DNA from: Candidatus Micrarchaeota archaeon
Lineage (GTDB): Archaea; Micrarchaeota; Micrarchaeia; Micrarchaeales; CABMGC01
Direction of reading: 5' to 3'
Assembly (NCBI GenBank): GCA_021792235.1
Contig: JAJYVC010000002.1
Location: 1-62,545, forward strand
DNA: 62,545 nt
A model generated the notes under the pieces. That model saw nothing but the letters and a program-made list of their open reading frames with translations, was not told the DNA's origin and ran no database searches. Of this stretch, positions 5,804-59,966 are shown one piece after another (within the stretch, counting starts at the first letter, position 1; every line of letters starts with the position of its first letter). The translations under genes and the position numbers were made by a program.

Positions 5804-6094
5804 ATGATAAATGTTGGAATGTACTATAATGTCAGGCAGGGGCACGAAGCGGAATTCGAGAGCACGTTTTCGCAGGTGGTGGAGCACCTTAAGAGCGCGA
5901 AGGTGGGGATAAGGGACGCCAAGCTTTACAGGGAGGTCGGAAAGAGCGAATACCTCATATACACAGAGTGGGAAAGCCTTGACTCCTTCAAGGGATTCAT
6001 ACAGAGCCGCGCCTTCAATGACACTGTAAGTGGTGGCAGATCCATAATTGAGGGACGGCCAAGGCACAGAGTATTTGCAGACGTCAATGAATAA
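5804..6094 (+). CDS. antibiotic-biosynthesis-monooxygenase (ABM) domain protein
   Basis: ~96 aa, MINVGMYYNVRQGHEAEFESTF...YLIYTEWESLDSFKGFIQSRAF, a typical ABM ferredoxin-like fold pattern. The start is taken at the ATG after the hemQ-like stop. Confidence 0.6.
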   Translation: MINVGMYYNVRQGHEAEFESTFSQVVEHLKSAKVGIRDAKLYREVGKSEYLIYTEWESLDSFKGFIQSRAFNDTVSGGRSIIEGRPRHRVFADVNE

Positions 6095-6113
6095 CTGGTA
6101 AAAGGCTCGTATA

Positions 6114-8841: not shown

Positions 8842-8916
8842 TAGTGCTAGGCTTGCCGCTACCGCAACACGTATCAATATTTCTGGGCAAATAATTGCAT
8901 CTTGTTGGTCGGTCAA

Positions 8917-9906: not shown

Positions 9907-9970
9907 TACTTTTGCATGCAGTACATGATATACAGACATCTTGTTGGATGCTGTTAAATCGTGATGGGTC

Positions 9971-11071: not shown

Positions 11072-11089
11072 ACGCCGGGTTTTCCGATA

Positions 11090-12037
11090 ATGAGGATGAG
11101 AAGATTACGGTCAAGCGAGGCCATAAGAAAGCTGTTTTCCGAGAGCAGAGTTGATACTTCAAAGCTCATAATGCCATTGTTCGTGCAGGAAGGCATAAAG
11201 GCGCGATCACCCATACCTTCAATGCCAAGACAATACCGGTATCCGCTTTCAGAGCTTGCAGGCATATCCTCAAAGATAGAGGAAGCTGGAATAGGGGCAG
11301 TGTTGCTTTTTGGAATACCGTCAAGCAAGGATGCGAAAGGCAGCGGAGCGTATGCCAAGAAGGGCATAATACAGAGGGCGGTTGAGGAGATAAAGGATGC
11401 ATCCTCGTTGGCTGTGATCGCAGACCTTTGCATGTGCGAGTACACAACATCTGGCCATTGCGGCGTATTGAAAGGAGGTGACGTGCACAATGATCTCACT
11501 CTCAATGCGTATGGAAAGATAGCTGTGTCGCAGGCTGACGCTGGTGCAGACATAATTGCACCTAGCGGAATGATGGATGGACAGGTTGCCAAGATACGAA
11601 AAGCATTGGATGCCAGCGGCCATGAGAATACACTCATAATGGCATATGCCGCAAAGATGGCCTCATCTTTTTATGGTCCGTTCAGGACTGCTGCGGACAG
11701 TACGCCAAAGAGCGGAGACAGGAAGTCATACCAGATGAGCTATTCGAATGCAAGGGAGGCTATGAGGGAGATTGCAATGGATGTAGAGGAAGGGGCAGAT
11801 GCAGTAATGGTAAAACCAGCGCTCACTAACCTGGATCTTGTAAGCAAGGCAAGGAGATTTGGGATTCCACTGGCTGCATACAACGTAAGTGGAGAGTATT
11901 CTGCAATAAATGCAGCTGCACAGCGTGGCTGGATAGATTACAAAAAGGCGGTGACAGAGGTATTGACATCCATTTCAAGGGCCGGAGCAGACATGATAAT
12001 AACCTATCATGCGCTTGAATTTGCCGGATGGAAATAG
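11090..12037 (+). CDS. hemB: porphobilinogen synthase (delta-aminolevulinate dehydratase), Zn-type
   Basis: MRMRRLRSSEAIRKLFSESRV, Cys-triad metal site DLCMCEYTTSGHCG, and Schiff-base region VMVKPAL. Confidence 0.9.
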   Translation: MRMRRLRSSEAIRKLFSESRVDTSKLIMPLFVQEGIKARSPIPSMPRQYRYPLSELAGISSKIEEAGIGAVLLFGIPSSKDAKGSGAYAKKGIIQRAVEEIKDASSLAVIADLCMCEYTTSGHCGVLKGGDVHNDLTLNAYGKIAVSQADAGADIIAPSGMMDGQVAKIRKALDASGHENTLIMAYAAKMASSFYGPFRTAADSTPKSGDRKSYQMSYSNAREAMREIAMDVEEGADAVMVKPALTNLDLVSKARRFGIPLAAYNVSGEYSAINAAAQRGWIDYKKAVTEVLTSISRAGADMIITYHALEFAGWK

Positions 12038-12043
12038 AGTATA

Positions 12044-12940
12044 TTAGGCAAAGCCGTTCCTTTTTGATATAGAGTACAGGCAACTTATTAGCTCCTTCGA
12101 GTAGTTTGGAGAGGTTGCTATTGCAACCTTACCTCCCGACTTATGTACGATTTCTGAGCATCTGATTCCGTCATCGTAAAGAGTCTCTAGATTATCGCTT
12201 ATGAAGCCTATCGGAGCGACTACGAAGTTTTTGGAGCCTGAAGATATCCTTGACTTTATGTGGTCATATATCACAGGACCAAGCCATGTACCACCAGACA
12301 TGCCGACGCTCTGGAATACCAGGGACCAGTTATCAATACCAAGCTTCCTGGAAACGAGACCTGACGCCTCACTGAGCTGACCTTTGTAGGTTTCAAGGTT
12401 ATCGGCATCGGTTATGGGAAGGCTGTGGGCAGTGAACACAAGTTCGGACTCGACTCCGCAGTCTTTGGCCGCCCTTGAAACGCTGTCGGACCAGTAAGAT
12501 ATCAATTCTGGCTCGTCGTGCCATGACTTGACATACTTCAATTTGACATTTGCGCCAATGTGCGATTCTTCAAGTTGCTTGAAATAACTCTCAGTGCCTA
12601 TCTTTGAGTAGAAAGGCGCCAGGGGCAGGCAGAGAAGTTCTGTTATTCCGTCATTTGCTATCTGCATTGCAGTCTCTTCTATGAACGGGGAGGAATGCTT
12701 CATACCTACATATACTTTGGTATCACTGCCGTGACTTTTTAGTGATTCGCGCAGCATGCTGACCTGCTTGCCGGTTATATCATTCAGGGGGGATATTCCG
12801 CCTATGCTGAGATATCTTCTCTGAAGCTCATCGATTTCCGCATCGCTGGGCCTCTTCCCTCTCCTTATGCTGGTAAAATACTCGCCAACTTGATCTGTGG
12901 ATTTAGGACTGCCGTATGCCATTAGGATTATGCCCTTCAT
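12044..12940 (-). CDS. hemH: ferrochelatase (paralog 1)
   Basis: MKGIILMAYGSPKS...RRYLSIGGISPL, FTAHSLP (catalytic His), FQSVG..GTWLGP, and GFISDNLETLYD (catalytic Glu). Confidence 0.85.
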   Translation of the reverse strand: MKGIILMAYGSPKSTDQVGEYFTSIRRGKRPSDAEIDELQRRYLSIGGISPLNDITGKQVSMLRESLKSHGSDTKVYVGMKHSSPFIEETAMQIANDGITELLCLPLAPFYSKIGTESYFKQLEESHIGANVKLKYVKSWHDEPELISYWSDSVSRAAKDCGVESELVFTAHSLPITDADNLETYKGQLSEASGLVSRKLGIDNWSLVFQSVGMSGGTWLGPVIYDHIKSRISSGSKNFVVAPIGFISDNLETLYDDGIRCSEIVHKSGGKVAIATSPNYSKELISCLYSISKRNGFA

Positions 12941-12961
12941 TTTTGCACCTTAATTCTGTAT

Positions 12962-13005
12962 TTGATATGTTCATTTGATATACCATGTTGATATTTAATT
13001 GATAT
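12962..13005. repeat. four direct copies of TTGATAT at 13/13/11-bp spacing, upstream of hemH paralog 1
   Basis: Copies at 12962, 12975, 12988 and 12999. Copies 1 and 4 extend to TTGATATGTT. They lie in the 104-bp spacer between the hemH start (12940) and the TnpB stop (13045). Confidence 0.6.
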
Positions 13006-13037
13006 GTTATGCATGCTGCTTTATGTTGTGACATCCT

Positions 13038-13058
13038 CTCCTAACTAAAGGTTAGGAG
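13038..13058 (-). repeat. perfect 8-bp stem / 5-nt loop hairpin straddling the TnpB stop codon (candidate IS right-end / omega-RNA structural element)
   Basis: CTCCTAAC (13038-13045), TAAAG loop, GTTAGGAG (13051-13058). Confidence 0.55.
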
Positions 13059-14271
13059 CTTCCCCTGCGTTTGCAGAGTCTGTTCCCAGCTCTTCGAGTC
13101 CGTTTGCATTCCCTGTTGGGATGTATTGACGATTCTCTCCCAGAGCGTGACTTTGGGAGTGTCCCTCCCTAGCTCTCTTGAGTATATTTATGGATGCGTT
13201 CATGTCCCTGTCCAGCTGCAACCTGCATCTATCGCAGTTGAATGCCATTATTTCCAGCGGCATCTCCATGATGTTGCCGCAGTTACTGCATTCCTTTGAA
13301 GTGTTATTGGGATTGACTTTTATTACTGCCTTTCCCCTTTCCTGCGCCTTGTAGGTCAGGAACTGCACAAACCTGCTCCATGAGGCGCTTTGGATTGACT
13401 GCGCAAGACGATGGTTTCTTTCCATGTTCTGGATCCTCAGTGCCTCTACTGCGAATGACGTGAATCCTCCATTTGCTAACTTTTGCGGAAGTTTGTGCAT
13501 GAAGTCGTTTGACTGACTTGTTACTGCGTTCCATTCTTCCTGAAGATGATACTTTGCCTTCTGTCTTCTCTTTTGAGCCCTTCTTGCGCCTGGCGACTAT
13601 TTTCTGCCATCTCGCAATCTTCTTTTCAGCCTTCTTGAAGAACTTTGGCTTCTGGAATGTCTCTCTGTTTGAAAGCGCAATGAAGTTATTGAGTCAGAGG
13701 TCTATGCCGACTGGGTTTGTATCCTTTATCTCTGGGATTTGTTTATGCTGAACTGCGGTAAATATTGCATAGTAATTGTTTTCTTCCTTTGCGATTGTCA
13801 GGGTCTTTATCTTGCCTTCTATATTCCTGTGCATCTCCATCCTTATCGTACCTGATATTTTTGATACCCTGAGCCTGTCTTTCTCTATCCTGAATGAGCC
13901 GTTGTTCTCTATGTGGGTGATGGATTTGTATTTATCCGTTGACTTGAACTTGGGAAATCCCTTTTTCTTTGCGTCTTCATTGCATCTGCCAAAGAAGTTT
14001 TGGTATGCCCTGAGCATCCTGTTCCTTATGTCTACCCTTACGTGGGCATAAAGGCGGTGATATTTTTGTCTTCTTTGAGTATCTCATTCATGTATTGATT
14101 AATGGTTCTCTGTGAAACTTTGCGTGACTGAATTGTCTTTTCCAGCAATTTGTTGTATAGTTCATGTGCAAGGAATATGGATTCGTCTATCTACTTCTGC
14201 CTTTTGAAGTCAGGGTAGAGCCCGAACTTGTAAACATGGACTATTTCCATGTTTCCTGTTTTGTTTTCCAT
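13045..14271 (-). pseudogene. tnpB: IS200/IS605-family TnpB (OrfB) RNA-guided nuclease gene, disrupted by at least 2 in-frame stops and 2 frameshifts
   Basis: Fragments read by hand. MEIVHVYKFGLYPDFKRQK* has its stop at 14191-14193, then a frameshift near 14040-14050. ...NPVGIDL* has TGA at 13694-13696 in place of the Gly codon of the GIDLG RuvC-I motif, then a frameshift near 13565-13580. The last fragment, ...FAVEALRIQNM (RuvC-II Glu)...CSNCGN..FNCDRCRLQLDRDMNASINI, carries the Zn finger and RuvC-III. Confidence 0.85.
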
Positions 14272-14301
14272 TCTTATATACCTTCTTGCACGCCATTACT
14301 C

Positions 14302-15312
14302 CTATCTCAAGGATAGAAGTTTGCGAGCGTGTTGAATTTTATCAACCACGATATCTGATAAGGCCTCGGCAAGCTTTGCAGACCCGTTAAGTGGCTTCAC
14401 CAGTGTTATACCTATTCTTGAAGCGGATGCCGCTTCCTTGCACATCGCAGCCAAGCCGTATAAGGTTTCGAAATTGTCGGCCACATATCCAAGCGGTACT
14501 ATGAGCACGTGATCGTACCCATTCTCCTTGCATTCTCGCACGAATCCAGTTATCTCTCTTACAGGCGCCGGATGTCCGCCAGTATAGTAGGCGCATGACC
14601 AATCTTGCAGGTCTAGGGACTTGGCGATTCTAGCTGCAAATGATTCAAAATTCCTTATATACGGATCACCGCCGTCTATGAACACCTTGGGCAGGCTGTG
14701 CGTAGCGAAGATGACCATCGTCCGGAGTTTCCTAAGCTTTGCGTATGGCTTTGATATTGCACTTTGCCAAGCTTCAGATAATTTCTCATTGTCATCCCAA
14801 GACTTCACTATGACTCCGTTTTTGCCGAACCCGTATTTCTTCAGGCTTGAGACAAACGTTTCTTCGTACTCATCACCGTATACCTTTGAGTATGTAGGGA
14901 ACATCACTATCCCTATTAACAGGGGGTTTGGGGAATTTTTGGCCTTTGCTACTGCTTCGTCTATTGATGGTCGCAGATGCTTCATTCCAACAAGAACCTT
15001 TGCGTCAATACCGATATTTTTCAACCTTGAATGTAGCATATTGGCTTGCTTAAGGGTTATTCTTACCAGGGGAGATCTGCCGCCTATTTTAGTATATTTC
15101 TCCCGAAGGGCTGCGAGCTGGTCTTCAGAAGGCTTCTTTAGGGCGTTGGCTACAGTGGCTGCATTGCGCGGATCTTTTAGAATACCAGCTACTAGCGACC
15201 TTGTTATTTTATGGTTGCGGTGCATGCTGCCCAGATAATCAGCTATCCCTTTCCTTCCATGTGGGCTTCCAACACTCATCAATATTACAAAGGTTTGATG
15301 TTCCGAATACAT
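14302..15312 (-). CDS. ferrochelatase-family protein (divergent paralog 2)
   Basis: FVILMSVGSPHG, KYTKIGGRSPL, FATHSLP, LGYVADNFETLYG. It lacks the FQS...WLGP motif (it has CAYYTGGHPAPVREI instead) and carries a ~30-aa N-terminal insertion relative to paralog 1. Confidence 0.7.
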   Translation of the reverse strand: MYSEHQTFVILMSVGSPHGRKGIADYLGSMHRNHKITRSLVAGILKDPRNAATVANALKKPSEDQLAALREKYTKIGGRSPLVRITLKQANMLHSRLKNIGIDAKVLVGMKHLRPSIDEAVAKAKNSPNPLLIGIVMFPTYSKVYGDEYEETFVSSLKKYGFGKNGVIVKSWDDNEKLSEAWQSAISKPYAKLRKLRTMVIFATHSLPKVFIDGGDPYIRNFESFAARIAKSLDLQDWSCAYYTGGHPAPVREITGFVRECKENGYDHVLIVPLGYVADNFETLYGLAAMCKEAASASRIGITLVKPLNGSAKLAEALSDIVVDKIQHARKLLSLR

Positions 15313-15502
15313 AGACTACAGCCCAAGCAAATTTGCTTCGTACTTAATATTAACACCATAACCCAATATTAATACATATAATGCCCTTTCTGCCGCATTA
15401 CTTGCCAGCACAAGTGTGTGCGTTGATGAGGATCTGGCCAGTTTATAACGTGGTTGTAAAAACAGTAATGTTTTTAGACCTATACAAAATATAATTATTA
15501 GT

Positions 15503-16981
15503 ATGGCCAGTGGTGCAGTACAGTCTGCCAAAAGTAGAGCTACGGGAAGAAAGGAGGACGCGGAAGGAAGCATAATGGGAGATATTAAAGCGGTTGCAGA
15601 AGAATACATGATAGAGAGCGGGCCATCTTATGGCAACAACTTCTTCTTCACTATAGGAGTTTATCTGTTGCTGCTTTTCGGTGTTCTTGTAGTGACAGGG
15701 ATAGTGATGGTGCTGTTCGGACCTTACTGGTGGGATCTTACTTCTATTGGTACGTTTATACGCAGCATACACATGTGGGCTGCAGAAGCGTTTGTCACAC
15801 TTATATTCATACACCTATTTGTCAATTTCAGCACTTCTGCATTCAGGAAAAGGAAGCTGATGTGGATAATAGGATCAGTAATGCTCATGCTAGTGCTTCT
15901 TGAGTTCGCATTTGGTGTAGGTATGGGTGGCAGCTTGCTGGCCCAGGCAAACCAGCAGGCCGGATCTGATCTCTGGAACGGGATGGGCCTAGGTTACTGG
16001 ATAAATCCAATGAATTCAGGCGCGGTTCTAGGCTGGCATATTGCCATCATACCGATAATCCTGATAGCGCTTATGTTCCTGCACTACAGCATTGTGCGCA
16101 AGAGAGGTCTAGTTACGCCATACAGGAAGGACATACCTTACAGTGTGACGCCGATAGACCATAAAATGATGTATAAGCGTATGATCTACCTTCTAATTAT
16201 AGTGCTAGCCTTCGCAGTGCTGTTCAGGGCCCCGTATATGCCGCCACTGACCATAAGCCAGGCAGCCAATCAGAATCCGGACGCTGTTGCAAGCGCATTC
16301 CTAAACGAATCTAACATGACATCCGCTACAGCCACCTACATCGACACGATAGATCCTTTCAGATTCAACACGCGGTACGTGTATGTCACCTATCCATATT
16401 CTGTATACTTGAATCTAACGCACTCGAAAAACCTTGAGGCACAGTTCCTAGCGGAAAGCACATCACAGCAAAACGACACGCTGGCACAGGCATATGCTTA
16501 TTTCGAGGCCAATGGAAGCATCAGGAGCGGGACCAATTCCACCAATCCGATGATAGGGTTAGCTTCAACGCTTACATACATGGCGCAAACTGGAGCATAC
16601 CAGCCAATCCTTCAAAGCGAAGTTGCTGGAGGCATGAACTATACCTATGTTATAAGGTTCCTGTACGACACAGGTGCACTGTGGAATGCCGCAAGCCAGT
16701 ACAACATAAGCGTGCCGCAGTGGGGCATGCTTACAGTAGGCGGCAACCCCCCATTGCGTCTGGAGTACTGGCTTATACCTTATAATTTCATGCAGATAGC
16801 GATGGCTGGAGTGCCTTGGTGGAATGACCTTGAAAACGGCACAGTAGTATTCTTGGCATTCCTGATATTCCTATTCTTGCCATACATACCAGGACTTAGG
16901 GCAATACCTGATAAATTAAAACTTTATAAATTGTTCTGGAACAGGTTTACCGTGCCTGAGATGCGGAAGGAGAAAAAGTAG
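15503..16981 (+). CDS. cytochrome b N-terminal-domain protein fused to a large Asn-glycosylation-rich extracytoplasmic domain
   Basis: Two bis-His helices: IHMWAAEAFVTLIFIH (His-x13-His) and WHIAIIPIILIALMFLH (His-x14-His). About 5 N-terminal TM helices, then ~220 aa with 8 or more NxS/T sequons, then a terminal TM helix. Alternative start at ATG 15575. Confidence 0.7.
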   Translation: MASGAVQSAKSRATGRKEDAEGSIMGDIKAVAEEYMIESGPSYGNNFFFTIGVYLLLLFGVLVVTGIVMVLFGPYWWDLTSIGTFIRSIHMWAAEAFVTLIFIHLFVNFSTSAFRKRKLMWIIGSVMLMLVLLEFAFGVGMGGSLLAQANQQAGSDLWNGMGLGYWINPMNSGAVLGWHIAIIPIILIALMFLHYSIVRKRGLVTPYRKDIPYSVTPIDHKMMYKRMIYLLIIVLAFAVLFRAPYMPPLTISQAANQNPDAVASAFLNESNMTSATATYIDTIDPFRFNTRYVYVTYPYSVYLNLTHSKNLEAQFLAESTSQQNDTLAQAYAYFEANGSIRSGTNSTNPMIGLASTLTYMAQTGAYQPILQSEVAGGMNYTYVIRFLYDTGALWNAASQYNISVPQWGMLTVGGNPPLRLEYWLIPYNFMQIAMAGVPWWNDLENGTVVFLAFLIFLFLPYIPGLRAIPDKLKLYKLFWNRFTVPEMRKEKK

Positions 16982-17142: not shown

Positions 17143-18747
17143 CTATTCCTTGAACTCACTACGCATCTTCATTTGCCTGCGCTTCTTGTTGTATGTTATT
17201 GCAAAGTTGTGTGTTGCATCCCTAATCCGCCTTACCAGAAGCATCGCCCTGCTGTTTATGTCAAATCTCCTTGGAGTTTCTTCATCTGGCAGATATATCT
17301 CTTCGAACTTCTTGGCAAGGCCGATCACTGGAATAGTAAGGCCAAGTGAATCGAGAGAGTCCTTTGCAGATTTAAGCTGCTCGGCGCCACCGTCTATTAG
17401 TATCAGGTCAGGCATTCTGGCCTTCTCCTCAAGCAGCCGCTTGTATCTGCGGTATACGACTTCGCGCATGCTTGCAAAGTCGTTTGCCCTCTTCACTGTT
17501 CTCACCTTAAATTTCCTATAGCCGCTCTTGTCAGGTTTTGCATCGACAAAACGCACCATGCCTGAGACTATGTGCTCGTTTCCTATGTTCGATATATCGA
17601 AAGACTCTATCACAATAGGCAGACTTGGCAGATTAAGGGCTTCCTGAAGGTCCGCAAGGGCGCTGTCGTGTTCCATGTTCACCTCTATGTTCTTGGTTGC
17701 AAGGTCCACAAGCGCACGTTTGTCGCCCTTGATCGGGACGATAAGGCTTACTGGAGCTCCCCTTGACTTTGCAAAGAATTCCTCCAAGGCAATCTTTTCA
17801 GCTTCGTCCACCCAGCATTGCTGGCTGAGTATTATTTCGCGCGGGATGGTATTTGACGAGTAGAATGCCCTTAGAAATTCACTTTCAAAGTTTTCCTGAT
17901 TCTCAATCTCAAAATCCTTCTTGCCGAGAAGAACTCCGCGCCTTACCCCCATCTGCACGACTATTACGCGCTCGCCTATTTTCTTGAATGCAATTATGTC
18001 CTGGTCAAAGTCCCGCTCATGATCGACTATCTGTTTTGTAGCCAGAAGATTTATGCTGCTTAGCTGGTTCCTAAATTCAAGCGCCCTTTCATATCTTCCT
18101 TCCTTTGATGCCTGCTCCATGCGCTCTGTGAGCATCTTTATTGTCTGTTCGACGCCTCCCTTAAGGAAAGTTCTTGCATCATCGACTTGTGCTTTATACT
18201 CCTCTTGCGTAACCTTTCCTATGCACGGTGCCGTGCAGATCCCTATATGGTAATTAAGGCACGCCCTTCTTGGAAGCGTCTTACATGTCCTTATCTTGAA
18301 TATGCTGACTATGAGCCTTTGGAGCTCCCTTCTCTTCATCGCATCTGTGTACGGGCCGAATGACTCGAGGGACGGACCCGTCTTTCTAGATGCAAGAATC
18401 CTTGGGAACTTATCTCTTGTAAAGGCGATGTATGCGAAGGTCTTTGAATCCTTTAGATTGATGTTGTACCTTGGGGAGTGCTGCTTTATCAGCTTATTTT
18501 CAAGAAGGAGGGCCTCGACCTCACTACGCACCACTATCCAGTCTATCCTCCTTATCTTTGATACGAGCATTCTTGTCTTTATCGCGAGCCTGTCCGGACT
18601 TGAGAAATAATTTCCAACCCTATTGCGCAGGTTTTTTGCCTTGCCGCAGTAGATAATCACATCTTTATCGTCCTTGAATAGATAGACTCCGGGATTGGTC
18701 GGCACTTGCTTAGCATTGAAATCCGCGGCTTTTTTTATCTCCATCAT
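17143..18747 (-). CDS. uvrC: excinuclease ABC subunit C (short form, no C-terminal (HhH)2 domain apparent)
   Basis: GIY-YIG N-terminus GVYLFKDDKDVIIYCGKAKNLRNRV, a UVR-like region, and a C-terminal endonuclease domain. 534 aa. Confidence 0.85.
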   Translation of the reverse strand: MMEIKKAADFNAKQVPTNPGVYLFKDDKDVIIYCGKAKNLRNRVGNYFSSPDRLAIKTRMLVSKIRRIDWIVVRSEVEALLLENKLIKQHSPRYNINLKDSKTFAYIAFTRDKFPRILASRKTGPSLESFGPYTDAMKRRELQRLIVSIFKIRTCKTLPRRACLNYHIGICTAPCIGKVTQEEYKAQVDDARTFLKGGVEQTIKMLTERMEQASKEGRYERALEFRNQLSSINLLATKQIVDHERDFDQDIIAFKKIGERVIVVQMGVRRGVLLGKKDFEIENQENFESEFLRAFYSSNTIPREIILSQQCWVDEAEKIALEEFFAKSRGAPVSLIVPIKGDKRALVDLATKNIEVNMEHDSALADLQEALNLPSLPIVIESFDISNIGNEHIVSGMVRFVDAKPDKSGYRKFKVRTVKRANDFASMREVVYRRYKRLLEEKARMPDLILIDGGAEQLKSAKDSLDSLGLTIPVIGLAKKFEEIYLPDEETPRRFDINSRAMLLVRRIRDATHNFAITYNKKRRQMKMRSEFKE

Positions 18748-21605
18748 GCTTTTTGTGCCTCAAGAATTGATTTTAGAAATTGGCCGGTGTACGACCCTTT
18801 TACTTTGGCTATTTCCTCAGGTGCGCCGGTTGCAACTATCCTGCCGCCCTCGGTTCCGCCTTCAGGACCGAGATCTATTATGTAATCGCAGCTTTTTACA
18901 ACGTCAAGGTTATGCTCTATTACAAATACGCTGTTTCCCTTTGCAACCAGTTCGTTGAGAACCCCAATGAGTTTTTTTGTATCCTCAAAATGGAGGCCGG
19001 TGGTGGGCTCGTCGAGCAGGTAAACCACATGACCCTGCTTGTACTTGCTTAGTTCCCTTGAGATCTTGACCCTCTGGCTCTCGCCGCCTGATAGAGTTGT
19101 CGCGCTCTGCCCAAGCTTTACGTATCCGAGCCCCACTTCTACAAGAGTCCTAATCTTCCTTGCGATTGGAGGTATGTTCTGGAAGAATGTGTATGCCTCT
19201 TCAATCTCCATGTTGAGGACTTCTGATATGTTTTTGCCTTTGTAGAGTATTCTGAGGGTTTCCTTGTTGTACCTCTTGCCGTGGCATTCGCTGCACTCGA
19301 CATATACATCGGGCAAAAAGTTCATCTCTATCTTTAAGACCCCGTCCCCCTCGCAGGTCTCGCACCTGCCCCCTTTCACATTGAATGAGAACCTTCCCTC
19401 CTTGAATCCCTTAATCTGAGCATCCCTTGTCGATGCAAAGAGCTTTCTTATCTCATCGAATACTTTCGTATATGTGGCGGGATTGCTCCTTGGGGTCTTG
19501 CCTATTGGGTCCTGGCCTATGACTATCACATTTTCTACCATTTTTGGTACGGAGAAGTAGAAATGCTCCCCTATGTGGTCTACCTGCTCGCCGAACTTCC
19601 TTTTGAGAAGCGGCATTATCGTCTGGTTCATCAGAGTGCTTTTGCCAGAGCCTGACACCCCAGTTATGCCGCATAAGACCCCAAGTGGCAGCCTGGCATT
19701 TATCTCCTTGAGGTTGTTCTCCCTTGCACCCTTTATCTCCATGTACTCTACTGGCGTCCTTCTGCTTTTTGGGATTTCTATTTTTAGGTCGCCACATAGG
19801 TACCGGCCAGTGAGGCTATTTTTGTTTAACATTATCTCTTTTGGTGTTCCTTGCGCTGTTATGTGACCCCCGTGAACTCCTGCTCCTGGACCCATGTCGA
19901 GGATATAATCTGCGGCAAGTATGGTATCCAGATCGTGCTCGACAACCACCAGAGTATTTCCTATGTCCCGCAGTCCCTTCAATGTGCGTATGAGTTTTTC
20001 ATTGTCCCTTTGGTGGAGGCCAATGCTTGGTTCGTCAAGGATGTAAAGCACCCCCATTAGGTTACTTCCTATCTGTGTTGCGAGCCTGATCCTCTGCGCT
20101 TCGCCTCCGGATATAGTCTTTGCGCTCCTTGACAGGGAAAGATATCCGAGCCCGACATTCTTGAGGAAGCCCAGCCTCTCGTTTATCTCCTTGAGTACCT
20201 GCTTTGCGATGGCTAGCTCCTTTTCTGGCAGTTTTGATGATAGGCTGCCAAAGAATTCTACGGATTGATCTACGCTAAGATCCGTGGCGTCTATTATGCT
20301 CTTTCCCTCTATCTTGACTGCAAGCACGACCGGCTGGAGCTTCTTGCCCATGCACGTCTTGCATGGCTCCCCTTTCATGAACTTTTCTATCTCCTCCTTT
20401 CTCCATTCGCTCTTCGTCTCCCTATAAAGCCGCATTGTCTGTGGTATCACTCCCTCAAAACCGCTTCCGCTGTGGTTATGCCATCTGCCCTTGGGTTCCT
20501 GGGGCTCTCTATCGCCGTAAAGCAGTACGTCGAGCTGCTTCTTTGTAAACTTTTCTATTGGCATCCAGACGTCAAATCCATGCCTCTTTCCTGCTTCGGC
20601 TATCTGCTGCGCCCTCCATGCAAGGTCCATCTTTCCGTATATCTCAATTGCGCCCTCCATCACGTTCTTGGATCTGTCAGGTATCAGAAGGTCGGTTGAG
20701 ATCTCTGTTATTTCTCCAAGACCATGGCACGCCGGGCACGCTCCGAACGGGCTGTTGAAAGAGAACATCCTTGGCTCAAGGCTCTCGAATACTATCTCGG
20801 GATGGTTTGGGCATGCACCAAAGGTGCTGTATGAGGTCTCGTCAGTGAATCTGTCAAGCTCCTTCTTCTTATCATTTGGACGCCTGTTGCTTATCACTAT
20901 CATCTTTCCTTTTCCCACAAGCAGTGCCTGCTCTACGGCTTCTGAGATCCTCGACCTTTCCTCGTCGTCTATCTTTATCGTGTCTATTACCGCCTCTATC
21001 CAATGCTTTTCATACCTTGCAAGCTTCACCTCCTGCTTGACGGTGTCAGAAGAATAGATATTCTGGTCGATCCTTATCTTTGAGAAGCCCTGTTTTTTTA
21101 GGTCGTCTATTACTTGGTCGTGGGTCCCTTTCTGGCCCCTAAGTATCGGAGCAAGAAAGACCAGGGTCTGGCCCTTTGACGCGAGGATGAGGCTTGTGAT
21201 GTTCTCTGCGCTTTGAGGCCTTATGGAGCTGTTGCATTTTGGGCAATGGTGAGTGCCGATTCTTGCATAGAGAAGCCTCAGGTAATCGTAGATTTCGGTG
21301 ACCGTCCCAACAGTGGATCTGGGATTCTTGTTGGTTGTCTTCTGCTCTATGCTTATTGCAGGGGAAAGCCCGTCTATGCTGTCCACATCGGGCTTGCTCA
21401 TGAGCCCTATGAACTGCCTGGCGTATGCTGATAGGCTCTCCACATACCTTCTCTGTCCCTCAGCATATATTGTATCGAAAGCAAGAGTCGACTTACCCGA
21501 CCCCGAAAGGCCGGTTATTACTATGAGCTTGTTCCTTGGGAGCTCAACATCTATGTTTTTCAGGTTGTGCTCCCGGGCCCCCTTTACAAGGATATTTTCC
21601 CTCAT
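18744..21605 (-). CDS. uvrA: excinuclease ABC subunit A
   Basis: 953 aa. [34 protein letters not shown], a second Walker [16 protein letters not shown] signatures, and Zn modules CPKC...CPAC and CETCEGDG...CSECHG. Confidence 0.95.
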
Positions 21606-23536
21606 TTTACCTGCCTCGACACCTGCCTTTTCATATCCTCTATTCTATCGCGCATCTCTATGGCTTTTTCAAACTCCAGGTTTTCCGCAAAGCTCTTCAT
21701 CTGCGCATCCATCTTTGCCAGTTCTTTTTGTATGTCTGATTTTCCAAGGTGCTTGATTCCTTTCATATTGCTCTTCTTCTCATCTATCTTCTTGACTATG
21801 GTCTTCGGAGTTATGTTGTACTTCTTGTTGTACTTGATCTGCTCAAGCCTTCTTTGCTGCGTTACGTGGATTGCCTCTTTCATCGAATCTGTCATCATGT
21901 CGGCAAAAAGCACCACCCTTCCATTGGCATTCCTTGCGGCCCTGCCTATGGTCTGTATCAGGCTCCTTGCATCACGCAGAAACCCTTCCTTGTCTGCATC
22001 GAGTATGAATATGGTACCTACCTCAGGTATGTCGAGCCCTTCCCGCAGGAGATTTATTCCGACGAGTATGTCGAACTCCTTCGCGCGCAACTGGCGTATT
22101 AATTCTATCCTCTCAAGGCTCTCTATTTCACTGTGAAGGTACCTGACCTTGAAGCCTTCCTTTGCAAGGTAATCTGTAAGGTCTTCGGCGGATCTTTTTG
22201 TGAGCGTTGTTATCAGCACCCTGTTGTTCATGGCTATTGTAGCTTTGGACTGCTCCATTAGATATTTCATCTGACCCTCCATCTTCCTCACCTCTACAAT
22301 GGGGTCGAGTAGGCCGGTCGGCCTGGTTATCAGGTCCACCTTCCTGCCGCTTTTGCCAAGCTCGTACTGCGCAGGAGTTGCGGATACGAAAAGGGTCATG
22401 CCCATCTTTGCCTCAAACTCCTCGAACTTTAACGGCCTGTTGTCAAAGGCACTTGGAAGCCTGAATCCGAAATCGACCAGATTCTTCTTGCGCATGAAAT
22501 CCCCGTTGTACATGGCTCTTGACTGCGGTATTGTCTGGTGGCTTTCATCGATTATCATAAGGAAATCCTTTGGGAAATAATCTATGAGCACATGAGGCGG
22601 CTGGCCTGGTGCCCTTCCGTCAAAATGCCTGCTGTAGTTCTCTATGCCGCTAGTGTATCCCATCTCTCTTATCATCTCCAGATCGTATTTTACCCTTTTC
22701 TCGAGCCTTTGCGCCTCAAGCGGATTTAGTTTTAGCAGCTGCTGAGCGAGCTCTTCCTTTATGGACTCGATTGCTGCCTGCTGCTTCTCTGGCGGAATTA
22801 CGAACTGCCTTGCAGGATAGATGACTATGTCGTCTATCTTCACCACCATGTCCCCTGTGACAGAGTCAATTTCCTTTATGCTTCCTATCCTGTCACCATC
22901 CAGCTCTATTCTGATTATGTTGTTTTCGTATGCAGGGATGACATCTATCGTATCGCCGCGCACCCTGAATCTGCCTGGTTCAAGATTCTGGTCGTTGCGC
23001 AGGTACTGTATTTCAACAAGTGAGCCAAGCAAACCCTTCCTTGAGATGTTCGCGTTCTTGCTAAGATGCACAGACATCTTCAGGAAGTCGTCAGGATTCC
23101 CAATGCCATATATGCAGCTGATGCTTGCAACGACTATTGTGTCTTTCCTGCTTACAAGACTTGATACCGCATGAAGCCTCATCTTCTCTATCTGCTCATT
23201 GACTGAAGAGTCCTTCTCTATGTACGTATCCGTGGTTGGAATATAGGATTCCGGCTGGTAGTAATCGTAGTAGGAGACAAAGTACTCTACGCGGTTGTCA
23301 GGGAAGAGCTCGCTCAGTTCAGTGTAGAGCTGGGCCGCAAGGGTCTTGTTGTGGGCTATTATCAGGGTAGGTTTTTGGAGCCGCTCTATAACGTTTGCCA
23401 TTACGAAGGTCTTGCCGCTTCCGGTTATGCCCAGAAGCGTCTCTTTTTGGAACTGTGAAAAACCAGATACAATCTCGTCTATGGATTGCTTCTGCCCCGG
23501 CGAGGTCTTGTAAGAGGATTTAAGGATGAATTTCAT
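21602..23536 (-). CDS. uvrB: excinuclease ABC subunit B
   Basis: [20 protein letters not shown] box (IIDESHQT), helicase motif [11 protein letters not shown], and a C-terminal UVR domain ([12 protein letters not shown]). There are 4-nt start/stop overlaps with uvrA, and between uvrA and uvrC. Confidence 0.95.
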
Positions 23537-48979: not shown

Positions 48980-49309
48980 ATGCCTAAGACGGAAAGAGAC
49001 AACGATGAGATATGGCTTATCAGGAAGATACTGAGCAAGCCCAACTATGCAGTATTGAAGCTGCTTATGGTCAAATCGCCAAGGACCACCAGAGAACTAT
49101 ACACAGTGCTTGGCAAGAAATTTACCAGGAAGACGCTGATAATAACCCTAAGGAACCTATCGATGAGCATGAGCGTACTCCAGCCAACGCACATAAGGAC
49201 GGAAAGGGGCTACGACCTTGGTTACAACATAAATCCTAGGCTCAAGGAGGTTGTCAAGTCAGTCGAGAAGTTCGAGAAGGTAGTAGAGAGCATAACTTCT
49301 TCTAAATAA
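48980..49309 (+). CDS. small winged-helix DNA-binding protein (putative transcriptional regulator)
   Basis: 109 aa. NYAVLKLLMVKSPRTTRELYTVLGKKFTRKTLIITLRNL resembles an ArsR/MarR-like wHTH. It is divergent from the pilus operon. Confidence 0.45.
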   Translation: MPKTERDNDEIWLIRKILSKPNYAVLKLLMVKSPRTTRELYTVLGKKFTRKTLIITLRNLSMSMSVLQPTHIRTERGYDLGYNINPRLKEVVKSVEKFEKVVESITSSK

Positions 49310-49388: not shown

Positions 49389-50099
49389 ATGATTCTGAAC
49401 AAGCCGTACGTACTAACCGACATAAAGAAGACAACCAAGGATGTCACCACATTCACGTTCAAGGCGCAGGACGGCACCAGCATAGACTTCTCTCCAGGCA
49501 TGTTTGCAATGCTCACTTGGATGGGCCCGGATGGGCAGAAGATAAGCAGGGCGTTCTCAATAGCCAACTGCCCTCCATCAGGAGAGCTGCAGTTTTTCAT
49601 ATCCATGATAAAGGGCCAGTTCACTTCGAAACTGGAGAATGCGAAGGTGGGCGATGTTTACCAGGTGTCTGCGCCTTACGGGCAGTTCAAGCTTGAGAGC
49701 AACTTCGGCAACAAGCTGCTCTTCCTTGCCGGAGGCACTGGCCTTGCGCCTTTCTTCTCAATGCTTAAGTACATAATAGGCAAGAATTCTAAACCCGACA
49801 TAGTGTTGATATACAGCGTAAAGTATCCATACGACATAATAGAGAAGGAAGAGCTTGAGAAGATGATCGCAGCCTTAGGCGGAAAGCTTACCGTAACGGT
49901 GACTAGGCCTGCGGACGGCGATGGCTGGACCGGAGAGAGGGGGCACGCGAATGCAGATATGATCAAGAAGTATGCACCTGATTCCAAGGATAGAGTAAGC
50001 TACATCTGCGGACCGCCAGAATTCGTGAAGGCGCTAAAGGCTGCGCTTGTGTCTTTGGGCACTAATGAAAAAGAGATAAAGGCAGAGATGTGGGGCTAG
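49389..50099 (+). CDS. ferredoxin-NADP reductase-like FAD/NAD(P)-binding oxidoreductase
   Basis: FAD motif RAFSIAN (RxYS type). NAD(P) motif LLFLAGGTGLAPFFSM. C-terminal YICGPPEF. Confidence 0.7.
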   Translation: MILNKPYVLTDIKKTTKDVTTFTFKAQDGTSIDFSPGMFAMLTWMGPDGQKISRAFSIANCPPSGELQFFISMIKGQFTSKLENAKVGDVYQVSAPYGQFKLESNFGNKLLFLAGGTGLAPFFSMLKYIIGKNSKPDIVLIYSVKYPYDIIEKEELEKMIAALGGKLTVTVTRPADGDGWTGERGHANADMIKKYAPDSKDRVSYICGPPEFVKALKAALVSLGTNEKEIKAEMWG

Positions 50100-50671: not shown

Positions 50672-50743
50672 TGAAACATGCTCATAAAAGATATCTAACA
50701 CAATTTATATAAATTTTTTATAACCAGGTAATATCGTGATTGG

Positions 50744-51247
50744 ATGAGCACAATAAGAAAACTGATTGAAAGAGCGGACAAGGTATTAAGATTCCCAACT
50801 GCTTACGCGCACTGCGACATACCATGCGGCATATACGATCCTCATGCGGCGCAGGTTGCAGCACACACAGTAGTAAGGATGGACATGCTCATTGCAGATG
50901 CAATGAAGTCTGGAGCTGCAAGCGCAGAAGATAGAAACAAAATTATCAGGTACGTTGGCGTGAAGGAGCAACACGCGGAGATAGTGAAGCATGAAGTTGC
51001 AGTCATATGGGGAGACTACATGAAGCCTGAGCACGCAAAGGCGCATCCTGAGCTTCATGAGCTCGTATGGAACACGCTAAAGCTTGCGGGCAAGGCAAAG
51101 CAGAGCACCAACATACAGGATGCAGAGGCCCTGCTTGAGAGCGTGCAGAAGTTCGCAGAGGCGTTCTGGGCCACGAAGAACGTACAGACGACAAGAGCGA
51201 AATCCTTTTACCCTACAGAGAGGACCTTCGTATACCCTAAAGTATAA
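50744..51247 (+). CDS. sodN: nickel-containing superoxide dismutase precursor
   Basis: Ni-hook motif HCDIPCGIYDP at 50810-50842, preceded by a 22-aa leader MSTIRKLIERADKVLRFPTAYA. A four-helix-bundle-like remainder follows. Confidence 0.85.
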   Translation: MSTIRKLIERADKVLRFPTAYAHCDIPCGIYDPHAAQVAAHTVVRMDMLIADAMKSGAASAEDRNKIIRYVGVKEQHAEIVKHEVAVIWGDYMKPEHAKAHPELHELVWNTLKLAGKAKQSTNIQDAEALLESVQKFAEAFWATKNVQTTRAKSFYPTERTFVYPKV

Positions 51248-51249
51248 GC

Positions 51250-51534
51250 ATGAGGCTTCCTCTGATGATATACAGGGTTGCTGAGCGCAGCATGGAGCCA
51301 TCCATAATGGAAGGCTCATATGTCATAGTAAACTGCTGGCCGCTCAGAATGCGCAGAGATGACGTGGTCGTTGCAAAGGATCCTTACGGAAGAATCATAG
51401 TCAAGAGAGTGAAGAGGGTGAAGGACGGAAAGCTCTTCCTTGTTGGAGACAACGCACGCAGGAGCATTGACAGCAGGAGGTTCGGATGGGTGGATATGGA
51501 AAGGGCATTTGGCAAGGTCATCGCCGTTGTCTAA
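51250..51534 (+). CDS. sodX: NiSOD maturation protease (S26 signal-peptidase-I family)
   Basis: 94 aa. Ser nucleophile motif ERSMEPS, Lys in IVKRV, and GDNARRSIDSRRFGWV. It starts 3 nt after the sodN stop. Confidence 0.8.
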   Translation: MRLPLMIYRVAERSMEPSIMEGSYVIVNCWPLRMRRDDVVVAKDPYGRIIVKRVKRVKDGKLFLVGDNARRSIDSRRFGWVDMERAFGKVIAVV

Positions 51535-55462: not shown

Positions 55463-55750
55463 TTGATGGAAGGCCCTCAAGCCCAGAGAAAGCAGATCTT
55501 GTTGGATGAACTAATCTGGATAAGGTCTAGGATTGGAGCAGATATAGAATCGCTGCCTGGCGTAAGCAATATCGGATTTGGGGTAGGCGATGGAAGCTTC
55601 TTCATTAGGGTGGGAATGCGTGAGAGGAATATGGCTACTGAAGGAAGGATACATGAGCTACTTGAAGGAGTCCCCCACAGGATAATGGGGCAGAACCAGA
55701 CGGGATGGGGGCAGGAGGCATCAGTAGACCTGAAGAGGTCAAGAAGGTGA
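55463..55750 (+). CDS. hypothetical protein
   Basis: 95-aa ORF directly after rpl10e. No recognised motif. Confidence 0.35.
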   Translation: MMEGPQAQRKQILLDELIWIRSRIGADIESLPGVSNIGFGVGDGSFFIRVGMRERNMATEGRIHELLEGVPHRIMGQNQTGWGQEASVDLKRSRR

Positions 55751-56275
55751 CTGTTTCTTAGCGTTGTAGTGCTTTATCACATCGTTTATGGCTATACGCA
55801 GCCAGGGCGTATATGATTTCTGGTTGTTCTCCAGCTCCTCCTTTAGCGCGCCCAGGCTTATCCATCTCCAAGCCTGCACCTCGTCCGGATTTGGCTTTGG
55901 ATCTGATTCATAAGTGCCAAAGATGACATGGTCGAATTCATGCTCTGTTAGCTCCTTGTCCATCTTTGCCTCGTACTCGAAGGCAAACACCTCATTTAGT
56001 TCGGTATCGAAGCCCATCTCCTCCTTGAGCCTCCTGTGCGCTGCTTGCACTGGAGTCTCGCCGATCCTGGGATGGCTGCAGACAGTATTGGACCACAGGC
56101 CGCCGCCATGGTACTTTGATAACGCCCTCTGCTGCAGCATAGTCTCTCCCCTGTCATTGAATATGAATATGGAGAACGCCCTGTGCAGCTTGCCTCCGTT
56201 CTGATGCGCCTTAAGCTTCTCCTCCAGACCTATCTGGTTATCATTATGGTCTACGAGTATTACCTGCTCTGGCAT
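55739..56275 (-). CDS. idi: isopentenyl-diphosphate delta-isomerase, type 1 (Nudix superfamily)
   Basis: Start at MPEQVILVDHNDNQIG. HRAFSIFIFN, WSNTVCSHP (catalytic Cys), EHEFDHV, and the catalytic Glu region. Confidence 0.85.
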   Translation of the reverse strand: MPEQVILVDHNDNQIGLEEKLKAHQNGGKLHRAFSIFIFNDRGETMLQQRALSKYHGGGLWSNTVCSHPRIGETPVQAAHRRLKEEMGFDTELNEVFAFEYEAKMDKELTEHEFDHVIFGTYESDPKPNPDEVQAWRWISLGALKEELENNQKSYTPWLRIAINDVIKHYNAKKQSPS

Positions 56276-56356
56276 GCAATCAGTATGGTATTGCACAGAA
56301 AGCAATATATATGTGGCAATGCAATGGTTTTCCTGACGGTATAATCTGTTTTTGCA

Positions 56357-57292
56357 ATGATGAATATGCGCATATTGCTGCAGTTTCCCGAGGGCTTGAA
56401 GCAGGAGGCTCTTAGGCATGCCAAGGAGCTTGAGGGACAGGGGAACGAGGTGGTAGTATCCGCCACCCCCACATTTGGTGCGTGCGACCTGGCAATTGAC
56501 GAGGCGAAGAACATCGGCGCTGAGAAGATAGTCCATTTCGGCCATGCGGAATTCCACAGAGTAGATTTCAACGTCGAATACGTGCCTTATCAGATCAATG
56601 CTGATTTCAGCATACTAGACAGGGCCGTTGAGCCGCTCAGGCAGTTCAAGACAGTAGGAATAGTCACCACGATACAGCACATACACCAGCTCGACAAGGT
56701 TGCTGACTTCTTTAGGCAGCATGGCAAAGAGGTGGTGATAGGCAAGCCTTACGGCTTCGCGAAGAAGCCTGGCCAGATACTCGGGTGCGATGCTGGCAGT
56801 GCGGCAAGCGTAAATGGCAGGGTTGATGCGTTGGTATACTTCGGCGGGGGTATGTTTCACCCTCTTGGTGCGCTTCTGGTGACTACTAAGCCGTTCCTTC
56901 TGATAGAGCCGTTCCAGGGCACAGTGGAGTTCATAGACAAGTACAGGGAAATATATTCCAAGAGGAGCAGGGGCAAGATCCTTGCATCTGTTGATGCAAA
57001 GAACATCGGCATACTTGTGACAACTAAGAACGGTCAGAACAACATGCCAATGGCCAGGATACTTAAGGCAAAGGCAGAGTCCGCAGGGCTGAGCGCTGCA
57101 ATACTCGTATCGAATACCTTCGACTTCGGATCGATAAACAACATGCTTGAGTTCGATGCATTCGTGAACACCGCATGCCCCAGGATATCGATAGATGATA
57201 CAGACAGGCTCAGGAAGCCCCTGCTAAGCGCTAACGAGTTCAATGAAGTCCTCAGAATAAAGGACGAACTAAAAGGAGGGCGCAAACGCTAA
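56357..57292 (+). CDS. dph2: 2-(3-amino-3-carboxypropyl)histidine synthase (diphthamide synthesis, Dph2)
   Basis: ILLQFPEGLKQEAL..., GACDL, TTIQHIHQL, and the NTACPRISIDD pattern of archaeal Dph2. Confidence 0.85.
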   Translation: MMNMRILLQFPEGLKQEALRHAKELEGQGNEVVVSATPTFGACDLAIDEAKNIGAEKIVHFGHAEFHRVDFNVEYVPYQINADFSILDRAVEPLRQFKTVGIVTTIQHIHQLDKVADFFRQHGKEVVIGKPYGFAKKPGQILGCDAGSAASVNGRVDALVYFGGGMFHPLGALLVTTKPFLLIEPFQGTVEFIDKYREIYSKRSRGKILASVDAKNIGILVTTKNGQNNMPMARILKAKAESAGLSAAILVSNTFDFGSINNMLEFDAFVNTACPRISIDDTDRLRKPLLSANEFNEVLRIKDELKGGRKR

Positions 57293-59108: not shown

Positions 59109-59966
59109 TCAAATCATCCTCTTTTCCCTTCCATACCAGAATATGTATTGCTGCGCATAACCCCTATATTTACCCCATCGTTCAGCTGAGAAGTCGTGTA
59201 TCTGGCGCATGCTAGTTTTTCTCCCGTTGAAATACGCTTTCTCCATGACCCTCTTGACCCATACGTCTATTGGAAAGGCCTCTAGTTTGTTGTATCCGAA
59301 GAGCAGTATGCAGTCTGCCACTTTATCTCCTATGCCGTCAAGCGCCATGAGCTTTGCCTTTGCATCATCATACTTCATCCTGTAAAGCCGCTTGGCATCA
59401 AATCCTGACGAGAACTCCTCTGCCAGGCGCTTTATGTACCTGTCCCTGAATCCTGTGCCGCATGCTCTTATCCGAGCGGTGCTGGAATCTGCAATCTGCT
59501 CTGGTCCAGGAAACAGGTGGATTCCATCATATACTGGCCCGAATTCGTTTATCAGGTTTCGCATTATGCCCCTTATCCTCTTGATGTTGTTGAACTGGGA
59601 CACTACAAAGCATAGTGCAGTCTCCCAAGGGTCGTTGCACGTTATCCTAAGTCCGTGGAACTCTTTTATGGCCTTTGCCATGAATTCGTCAGTGGATATG
59701 CTTTTGTAAATGTGCATTATATCTTCGTCTATAGAGAACCTTCTGCGTATCTCCTCCCCAGCTGAAGATTTCGTGTATTCTCCCTCGAAGGTATAGTCTG
59801 CCCTTTCCCCGGATAACCTGAACCAAATAATCCCTTTCTGGGTAACGTAGCGCAGCTCCTCTTTGCCATGCTGCCTTGTATAGTCTGAATAGAAGGCGAG
59901 AGGCTGGCCGCTTTCTATTGTGTGCCTGAGGCTGAAGTCCTTGATTATTAGCATAGAATCAGTCAA
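59109..59966 (-). CDS. ogg: 8-oxoguanine DNA glycosylase/AP lyase (OGG1-type HhH-GPD)
   Basis: HhH-GPD motif LMALDGIGDKVADCILLFG (catalytic Lys), followed by FPIDVWVKR (catalytic Asp). Confidence 0.8.
   Translation of the reverse strand: MTDSMLIIKDFSLRHTIESGQPLAFYSDYTRQHGKEELRYVTQKGIIWFRLSGERADYTFEGEYTKSSAGEEIRRRFSIDEDIMHIYKSISTDEFMAKAIKEFHGLRITCNDPWETALCFVVSQFNNIKRIRGIMRNLINEFGPVYDGIHLFPGPEQIADSSTARIRACGTGFRDRYIKRLAEEFSSGFDAKRLYRMKYDDAKAKLMALDGIGDKVADCILLFGYNKLEAFPIDVWVKRVMEKAYFNGRKTSMRQIHDFSAERWGKYRGYAQQYIFWYGREKRMI

Follow-up and report, generated by a model that had tools for sequence, protein, structure and literature searches.

We analysed a stretch of 62,545 nucleotides (nt) from a Candidatus Micrarchaeota archaeon (contig JAJYVC010000002.1 of assembly GCA_021792235.1), hereafter the window, in which two adjacent genes, sodN and sodX, encode a nickel superoxide dismutase (NiSOD) precursor and a small putative maturation protease. 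We consider it very probable that these genes form a NiSOD operon in an acid-mine-drainage archaeon of the Micrarchaeota (DPANN), and that SodX matures SodN. The features of the locus, all on the forward strand and with lengths of products in amino acids (aa), are the following.

50704..50723, forward strand: AT-rich, TATA-box-like stretch TTTATATAAATTTTTTATAA, a putative archaeal promoter, 21-40 nt 5' of the sodN ATG
50736..50740, forward strand: GTGAT, a Shine-Dalgarno-like motif, 3 nt 5' of the sodN start codon
50744..51247, forward strand: sodN, NiSOD precursor of 167 aa (ATG at 50744, TAA at 51245-51247)
50744..50809, forward strand: leader (pro-peptide) of 22 aa, MSTIRKLIERADKVLRFPTAYA, ending in TAYA; by homology, its removal would expose His1
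50810..50842, forward strand: Ni-hook HCDIPCGIYDP, directly after the leader (His23 codon at 50810-50812)
50858-50860, 50972-50974 and 50993-50995, forward strand: codons of Ala17, His55 and Glu62, respectively, in the numbering of the mature protein
51182..51244, forward strand: C-terminal tail of 21 aa, VQTTRAKSFYPTERTFVYPKV, outside the Pfam and TIGR models
51250..51534, forward strand: sodX, putative SodN maturation protease, a small soluble S26/S24 Ser-Lys peptidase of 94 aa
51289..51291, forward strand: codon of Ser14, the predicted nucleophile in SMEPS, which corresponds to the SMxP box of signal peptidase I in an alignment to PDB 4nv4
51403..51405, forward strand: codon of Lys52, the predicted general base in VKRV, from conservation

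A preliminary description of this DNA had reported the Ni-hook after a leader ending in TAYA and, downstream of it, a 94-aa S26-family peptidase with SMEPS, KR and GDN...DSR motifs, the two forming a complete sodN-sodX module, and all of this was borne out, with the hook and the boxes present and the metal-ligand and catalytic-dyad residues intact throughout the predicted proteins. The match of SodN to NiSOD profiles also extended far beyond the short hook: it scored 146 bits (E 1e-42) against Pfam Sod_Ni (PF09055, cut-off 25 bits), covering model positions 2-127 of 127, and 160.2 bits against the NCBIfam equivalog TIGR02753 sodN (cut-off 90 bits, thus exceeded by 70 bits), covering positions 3-144 of 145. 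In a search of PDB sequences, SodN residues 23-146 aligned to residues 1-116 of mature Streptomyces NiSOD (E 1.5e-23), and since this alignment begins exactly at His23, this residue is the equivalent of the mature His1. A six-frame scan found a single Ni-hook across the window. Relatives were taken from the best 80 species-representative genomes, and the hook was aligned among the window protein, the 80 related loci and the S. coelicolor sequence. H1, C2, D3, P5, C6, Y9, D10 and P11 were invariant in 81/81 clade sequences and the same in S. coelicolor NiSOD. By homology, Ni is predicted to be bound by His1 through its amine and imidazole, by Cys2 through its amide and thiolate and by Cys6 through its thiolate; Tyr9 is present as well. 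The residue preceding His1 was Ala in 80/80 loci, while position -3 was Ala in 72 and Val in 8 of them, so that an A/V-x-A motif stands before His1 in every locus, in agreement with the classic specificity of S26 peptidases. Within the leader, Asp12 and Ala22 were conserved to at least 90%, and the AlphaFold2 (AF2) model shows a helix at residues 2-15. By homology, the leader would be cleaved off.

The start codons of both genes required attention. The automatic call of sodN begins at Met48 (P0045, 120 aa), and the leader and the Ni-hook are lost. A (G)GTGAT motif, which presumably pairs with the 3' end of the 16S rRNA, is kept 3-6 nt before the sodN ATG in most close relatives, and this conservation, together with the full-length homologues, supports 50744 rather than Met48 as the true start. 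The Met48 call is an annotation artefact that must be wrong because it deletes the hook. AT-rich boxes lie at a similar distance (about 40 nt) before the sodN ATG in Micrarchaeota relatives, and the stretch found here may act as the sodN promoter. The automatic call of sodX begins at Met6 (P0121, 89 aa; alternative start at 51265). The SodX relatives P0123 and P0124 have Arg in place of Met6, no internal Met, and conserved Leu3 and Pro4, which favours 51250 as the sodX start; this is not entirely certain, given a GAGG motif 9 nt before 51265. The practical lesson is that automatic gene calling can place the sodN start at an internal Met, whereby the Ni-hook is lost.

The sodX ATG lies 2 nt past the stop codon of sodN. 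Its product contains the boxes ERSMEPS (Ser14), VKRVKRV (Lys52) and GDNARRSIDSRRFG, and scored 57 bits against Pfam Peptidase_S26 (cut-off 22.9) and 33.6 bits against Peptidase_S24. The best NCBIfam model for it was TIGR02754, the nickel-type superoxide dismutase maturation protease. In the 72 SodX homologues linked to sodN, Ser14 and Lys52 were invariant (72/72), Met15 and Pro17 were each kept in 71 and the Arg after Lys52 in 70; in the GDN...S.DSR box, G66 was found in 71, D67 in 69, D74 in 70 and S75 in 71. A SodX homologue adjoins sodN in 71 of the 80 related loci (tblastn), in most of the linked ones 0-60 nt downstream and on the same strand.

A different reading of sodX is that it encodes a general signal or housekeeping peptidase, or a fragment of a LexA-like autoprotease, that lies beside sodN by chance, SodN then being processed by something else or not at all. 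The TIGR02754 score under the cut-off of that model would allow this, as would the nearly equal score of 52.4 bits against the bacterial signal peptidase I model TIGR02227 (cut-off 47), which was obtained over two partial stretches. However, the alignment to TIGR02754 runs from end to end (positions 2-89 of 90), while the archaeal signal peptidase model TIGR02228 (Sec11-like) gave only 22.1 bits in a partial alignment (cut-off 51.85) and the LexA model 15.7 bits (cut-off 110.95). Moreover, a protein of 94 aa with its nucleophile at residue 14 has no room for an N-terminal membrane anchor, the linkage to sodN is maintained across two domains of life, and the A/V-x-A cleavage site is present in all loci. 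We therefore regard a chance neighbour as highly unlikely and SodX as the probable protease of SodN.

Micrarchaeota accounted for at least 31 of the best 80 species-representative genomes. They were followed in the ranking by Marsarchaeota, Parvarchaeota, Woesearchaeota, Aenigmarchaeota and many Thermoplasmata and Methanomassiliicoccales, and then by Levybacteria and other bacteria of the candidate phyla radiation (CPR), Gammaproteobacteria and Chloroflexota. In a neighbour-joining tree with 200 bootstraps, the window protein fell into Micrarchaeota-only clades with bootstrap values of 0.85 and 0.94. Micrarchaeota and other DPANN archaea were joined by Thermoplasmata, then by CPR bacteria and Gammaproteobacteria and then by Chloroflexota, with bootstrap values of 0.25 or less at these deep nodes. 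In the published NiSOD tree (bioRxiv 10.1101/2021.01.12.426412), the archaeal sequences fall inside Patescibacteria, and these in turn inside a clade of Chloroflexota type. The joining order agrees with that tree, which makes an inter-domain origin plausible but old. The GC content and the GC content at third codon positions (GC3) were 0.496 and 0.554 for sodN and 0.505 and 0.621 for sodX, within one standard deviation of the window genes (n=52; GC 0.492 +/- 0.026, GC3 0.569 +/- 0.054). Since both genes match their neighbours in composition and the module is syntenic in many Micrarchaeota species, any transfer must be old.

A recent acquisition of sodN-sodX by this particular genome from a bacterial donor would be in line with the repeated inter-domain transfers seen in published NiSOD trees (bioRxiv 10.1101/2021.01.12.426412; PMC10783094) and with the variable neighbourhood, in which a TK gene stands between FNR and sodN in only some relatives. 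We give it very little chance, since there is no compositional signal in either gene, the protein sits inside a Micrarchaeota-only clade, bacterial SodN proteins are at most about 62% identical to the window protein as compared with 70-99% for those of Micrarchaeota, and the archaeal-type arrangement of Shine-Dalgarno and TATA-like elements upstream is common to the relatives. Neither a bacterial sodN-sodX more than 85% identical in DNA nor absence of the module from all sister Micrarchaeota was seen. The preliminary description had called the module horizontally acquired; this fits the published NiSOD phylogeny, but only as an ancient, clade-level event; the deep nodes of our own tree are unsupported. 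An inter-domain transfer of sodN-sodX, if there was any, was ancient and not specific to this genome. The donor, which was expected to emerge from a phylogeny, cannot be assigned to any lineage, as the tree resolves only the shallow Micrarchaeota clades.

The AF2 model of SodN, built from 59 homologues, reached a predicted local distance difference test (pLDDT) score of 88 and contains a four-helix bundle besides a helical leader and a hook of low confidence. When the model was searched with Foldseek, the top 16 matches were all NiSOD crystal structures, including 1t6u, 1q0d and 3g50, with target-normalised template modelling (TM) scores of 0.86-0.93 to the NiSOD structures and a probability of 1.00, whereas the next fold was found only at E 0.26. 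SodN is thus predicted to adopt the right-handed four-helix-bundle fold of NiSOD. Relative to the crystallised enzymes, it carries an 8-aa insertion following helix 1 and the C-terminal tail. The tail, with the consensus V.T.R.KS.YPTER..VYPKV (loci L001-L066), is kept in 73-75 of the 80 loci, in archaea, CPR bacteria, Chloroflexota and Gammaproteobacteria, and is predicted to form a beta-hairpin (strands E149-153 and E161-165, pLDDT 87-90 in the AF2 model). It has no counterpart in the Streptomyces structures, in any other solved NiSOD or in five Chloroflexia/Limnocylindrales sequences. A literature search on a C-terminal extension of NiSOD found nothing relevant.

In Streptomyces NiSOD, His1 is hydrogen-bonded by Glu17 and Arg47 (PMC5722923). 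This triad is absent here: Glu17 is replaced by Ala17 (76/81), Arg47 by His55 (81/81) and the S. coelicolor His54 by an invariant Glu62 (81/81). The absence of the triad places the protein in the other, Chloroflexota-type, NiSOD branch, and the His1-Glu17-Arg47 triad is a subgroup feature of Streptomyces-type NiSOD and not a family-defining one. Judged from the alignments, the insertion, the tail and the second-sphere changes are traits of the whole branch and not peculiar to this genome. The same replacements, together with a conserved tail that is missing from every solved NiSOD and the lack of a characterised branch member in the literature found, could be taken to mean that the sodN product of this clade is not a superoxide dismutase (SOD) but a NiSOD-fold protein of changed function. 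The chance of this appears very slim, because the first-sphere ligands as well as Tyr9, Asp3 and Pro5 are all invariant, the TIGR02753 score lies far above the equivalog cut-off, the maturation protease is retained, and in other archaea sodN is found among genes for the repair of oxidative damage (OGG, Nth). We thus continue to read sodN as the gene of a NiSOD.

Tentatively, and with the odds rather against it, the NiSOD of Micrarchaeota, DPANN, Thermoplasmata and Chloroflexota type may be a distinct structural variant with a second sphere rewired around the axial His1 and a conserved C-terminal beta-hairpin. If this were true, the hairpin could alter hexamer contacts or redox tuning, and a large group of non-marine archaea would have this variant as their main SOD, which would contradict the published use of Fe-SOD by Micrarchaeota and the rarity of NiSOD in archaea beyond Marine Group II (MGII).

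As to the genomic context, the contig also carries the archaeal genes for aIF1/SUI1, an L3-L4-L23-L2-L22-S3 ribosomal-protein operon, L10e, Dph2, HMG-CoA reductase, an HMGS/thiolase/DUF35 trio and an archaeal pilus-type ATPase, and archaea-specific genes lie on both sides of sodN-sodX. The closest matches of the SodN protein (70-99% identity) are proteins from metagenome-assembled genomes (MAGs) of Micrarchaeota. An independent NCBI MAG contig shows TK-sodN-sodX-UGDH...L10e-Dph2 in the same order with 99% identity, and the order hyp109-FNR-(TK)-sodN-sodX...L10e is common to close relatives. In addition, 96-99% of the words of the region were present in eight DNA runs from two studies (mine-drainage and sediment metagenomes). 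The view of the preliminary description that the genes stand in an archaeal-type context and are not contamination thus proved right. Bacterial contamination or an assembly chimera within an archaeal bin, which might be suspected because NiSOD is classically bacterial, because a close relative at 66% identity carries an Acidobacteriota name and because the Logan contigs of one run (X1) break at 50810-50847, has a negligible probability and is excluded, since the archaeal flanks share one contig with the module, the gene order recurs in the independent MAG contig, the module is found in the genomes of over 30 Micrarchaeota species, in several of them beside the same neighbours, the region recurs in the eight runs, the break, located in the ultra-conserved hook, is bridged by an overlap of the two Logan contigs, and the "Acidoferrum" contig is itself archaeal.

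The relative with the bacterial name (L016, DATJLP010000007.1, "Candidatus Acidoferrum sp.") has a sodN-sodX pair 66% identical to that of the window and is the one bacterial label inside the Micrarchaeota clade. Genes for diphthamide synthase and a Cdc48-like double-AAA ATPase, besides Ham1, are on its contig, which is therefore archaeal (Micrarchaeota-like) and was mislabelled or mis-binned as Acidobacteriota. In the mine-drainage run X1, the Logan contigs break at 50810..50847, in the coding sequence of the Ni-hook, and short variant contigs are found there; this suggests several co-occurring Micrarchaeota strains that share the ultra-conserved hook stretch.

Taken together, the following sequence of events can be proposed. 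The product of sodN would be an inactive NiSOD precursor. The sodX gene would be co-transcribed with sodN and probably translationally coupled to it, and its product would be a cytoplasmic Ser14/Lys52 peptidase that cuts after the Ala-Tyr-Ala ending the 22-aa leader, whereby His23 would become the N-terminus and the mature N-terminal peptide would start HCDIPCGIYDPHAAQVAAHTVVR. Nickel would then be loaded and bound by the ligand groups of His1, Cys2 and Cys6 named above, including the freed amine of His1, and the four-helix-bundle enzyme, presumably a hexamer, would alternate between Ni(II) and Ni(III) while converting superoxide into O2 and H2O2. In this way, an expressed and active NiSOD would protect an aerobic cell containing haem and cytochrome. 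The module belongs to the Chloroflexota-type NiSOD branch and has long been inherited within Micrarchaeota, any crossing between domains being ancient. An aerobic setting is apparent in the window from the haem pathway, cytochrome b, OGG, NUDIX and UvrABC; among these, OGG, two NUDIX genes and uvrABC (59109..59966, 55739..56557 and 17143..23536) lie within 35 kb. About 70 open reading frames (ORFs) of the window were compared with Pfam or NCBIfam, and six-frame signature scans were run for Fe/Mn-SOD, superoxide reductase (SOR) and NiCoT. By these profile and signature searches, there was no second SOD and no SOR in the window.

Several observations weigh against this interpretation. SodX scored 55.6 bits against TIGR02754, 7.6 bits under the cut-off of 63.25. 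The AF2 model of SodX, made from a 4-sequence alignment, had a pLDDT of 49 and was unusable (a word-indexed protein search gave 4 SodX relatives). The second-sphere partners of His1 are not conserved, and details of its tuning may differ from those of Streptomyces NiSOD. The deeper nodes of the neighbour-joining tree had bootstrap values of 0.25 or less, and the direction and timing of the inter-domain transfer rest on the literature. The same scans of the window found no nickel transporter or importer, no chaperone and no NiCoT signature; nickel may plausibly be available in metal-rich mine drainage. Finally, three small metatranscriptomes from the same mine-drainage study, available as contigs only, gave zero coverage and were uninformative.

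Two further genes lie upstream of sodN.

48980..49309: hyp109, 109 aa, no family matches, the constant upstream neighbour of the FNR-like gene (loci L082-L096)
49389..50099: FNR-like FAD/NAD(P)H oxidoreductase, upstream of sodN

The hyp109 protein is 79-96% identical among Micrarchaeota, more conserved than SodN, and is possibly a winged-helix regulator. The FNR-like gene stands directly upstream of sodN in 9 close loci, and weak FNR-family matches near sodN occur in Thermoplasmata and Chloroflexia (22-30% identity), with different architectures (510 and 767 aa). In a reciprocal search with FNR as the query, 10/15 loci (9/14 in Micrarchaeota) had no sodN within 3.5 kb. The FNR-like protein was therefore rejected as a functional partner of sodN, since the distant copies are unlike it and most FNR loci have no sodN nearby. 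Likewise, because the hyp109-FNR pair adjoins sodN-sodX in only a subset of genomes, a functional link of the pair to NiSOD is unsupported.

Some other observations were made in the surroundings of sodN. In several Thermoplasmata/Methanomassiliicoccales and DPANN loci, sodN stands beside DNA glycosylase genes (Ogg-HhH, Nth/MutY-type), which lie about 1-3 kb upstream of it in L033, L035, L039, L040, L042 and L048; L016, L017, L019, L028 and others are further such loci. In the window itself, a near-complete cluster for haem biosynthesis at 5143..16981 comprises genes for a HemQ/chlorite-dismutase-like protein, a HemC-HemD fusion, UROD, HemA, a radical-SAM enzyme, HemB and two ferrochelatase paralogues; a gene for cytochrome b comes after them. 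For a DPANN archaeon with a reduced genome, such a cluster is remarkable, and it is in keeping with aerobic life. Between both ferrochelatase genes, a 151-aa ORF (13045..13500) with only a Cas12f1-like/TnpB TNB domain is probably the remnant of a TnpB/IS200-605-type element. At the edge of the window, an ORF at 21..1214 has LAGLIDADG, intein-splicing and AAA ATPase domains and is the C-terminal part of an intein-containing AAA gene (Cdc48 or proteasome-activating type) cut by the window start.

The occurrence of NiSOD in an archaeon is no surprise, and the notion of its rarity in archaea is outdated. NiSOD has been found in 26 archaeal genera, and multiple transfers from bacteria to archaea have been argued for (Sutherland et al. 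2021, bioRxiv 10.1101/2021.01.12.426412), while a study from 2023 reported it throughout MGII, in a few DPANN, TACK, Asgard and other lineages, and as rare elsewhere (PMC10783094). NCBI already labels Micrarchaeota and Marsarchaeota proteins as "superoxide dismutase, Ni". Micrarchaeota have been reported with Fe-SOD (PMC5864196), and another study of Micrarchaeota covers only sodA (PMC8773360). In the literature found, there was no paper naming NiSOD in Micrarchaeota, although database annotation does so. Since sodN-sodX is common in related archaea and archaeal NiSODs have been published since 2021, the module is ordinary here: it adds one more member to a known system, in a lineage that commonly has this system although little is said about it. 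The less ordinary aspects are only the branch-specific features of the enzyme and the unexpectedly wide presence in Micrarchaeota. For this genome, the result is a sound annotation, by which a reduced-genome, host-associated archaeon from metal-rich mine drainage would have the means to cope with exposure to oxygen, and its oxidative defence would, judging from its genes, depend in part on nickel. It also adds to the case that terrestrial archaea (Micrarchaeota, other DPANN and Thermoplasmata) commonly have NiSOD, which is thus not a marine or actinobacterial speciality, and it shows that a whole branch carries features without structure or enzymology, namely the changed hydrogen-bond network of His1 and the C-terminal hairpin.

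Compared with the NiSODs of S. coelicolor and S. seoulensis (1T6U, 1Q0D), SodN shares the HCDxPCGxYDP hook directly after a cleavable leader and the same four-helix bundle (TM 0.86-0.93), at 35-38% identity. It differs from them in its 22-aa leader, its 8-aa insertion and its 21-aa beta-hairpin tail; the leader of Streptomyces NiSOD has 14 aa. Furthermore, Ala17, His55 and Glu62 stand in place of the Glu17, Arg47 and His54 of Streptomyces, the host is an archaeon with putative archaeal promoter and Shine-Dalgarno signals, and no regulation of the Nur or sodF type is evident. As here, a gene for a small Ser/Lys S26-type peptidase adjoins sodN in Streptomyces (SCO5254/SCO5255; PMC3919588). The requirement of NiSOD for its cognate SodX is given as established in Prochlorococcus and Streptomyces (Eitinger 2004, as cited in PMC3919588 and PMC8346466). 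As far as it is described in such accounts, the SodN/SodX pair of Prochlorococcus marinus MIT9313 follows the same two-gene logic of an inactive precursor with a dedicated peptidase alongside, while its SodN is set apart as belonging to a cyanobacterial/Actinobacteriota-type branch and a marine setting. The published archaeal NiSODs (Poseidoniales/MGII, Woesearchaeales and others) have archaeal hosts and sequences nested among bacterial ones, as does the protein described here, and those of Woesearchaeota, Parvarchaeota and Aenigmarchaeota are 56-58% identical to it and have the same tail; the papers on them name Nanoarchaeota/Woesearchaeota, Thermoplasmatota and a few others, but not Micrarchaeota (bioRxiv 10.1101/2021.01.12.426412; PMC10783094). 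Type I signal peptidases (LepB/SipS, PDB 4NV4, 1B12), lastly, have the same SMxP, KR and GDN...S.DSR boxes as SodX and prefer Ala-x-Ala at positions -3/-1, as found at the end of the SodN leader, whereas SodX, with 94 aa and without a membrane anchor, is presumably cytoplasmic and predicted to be dedicated to a single, non-secreted substrate.

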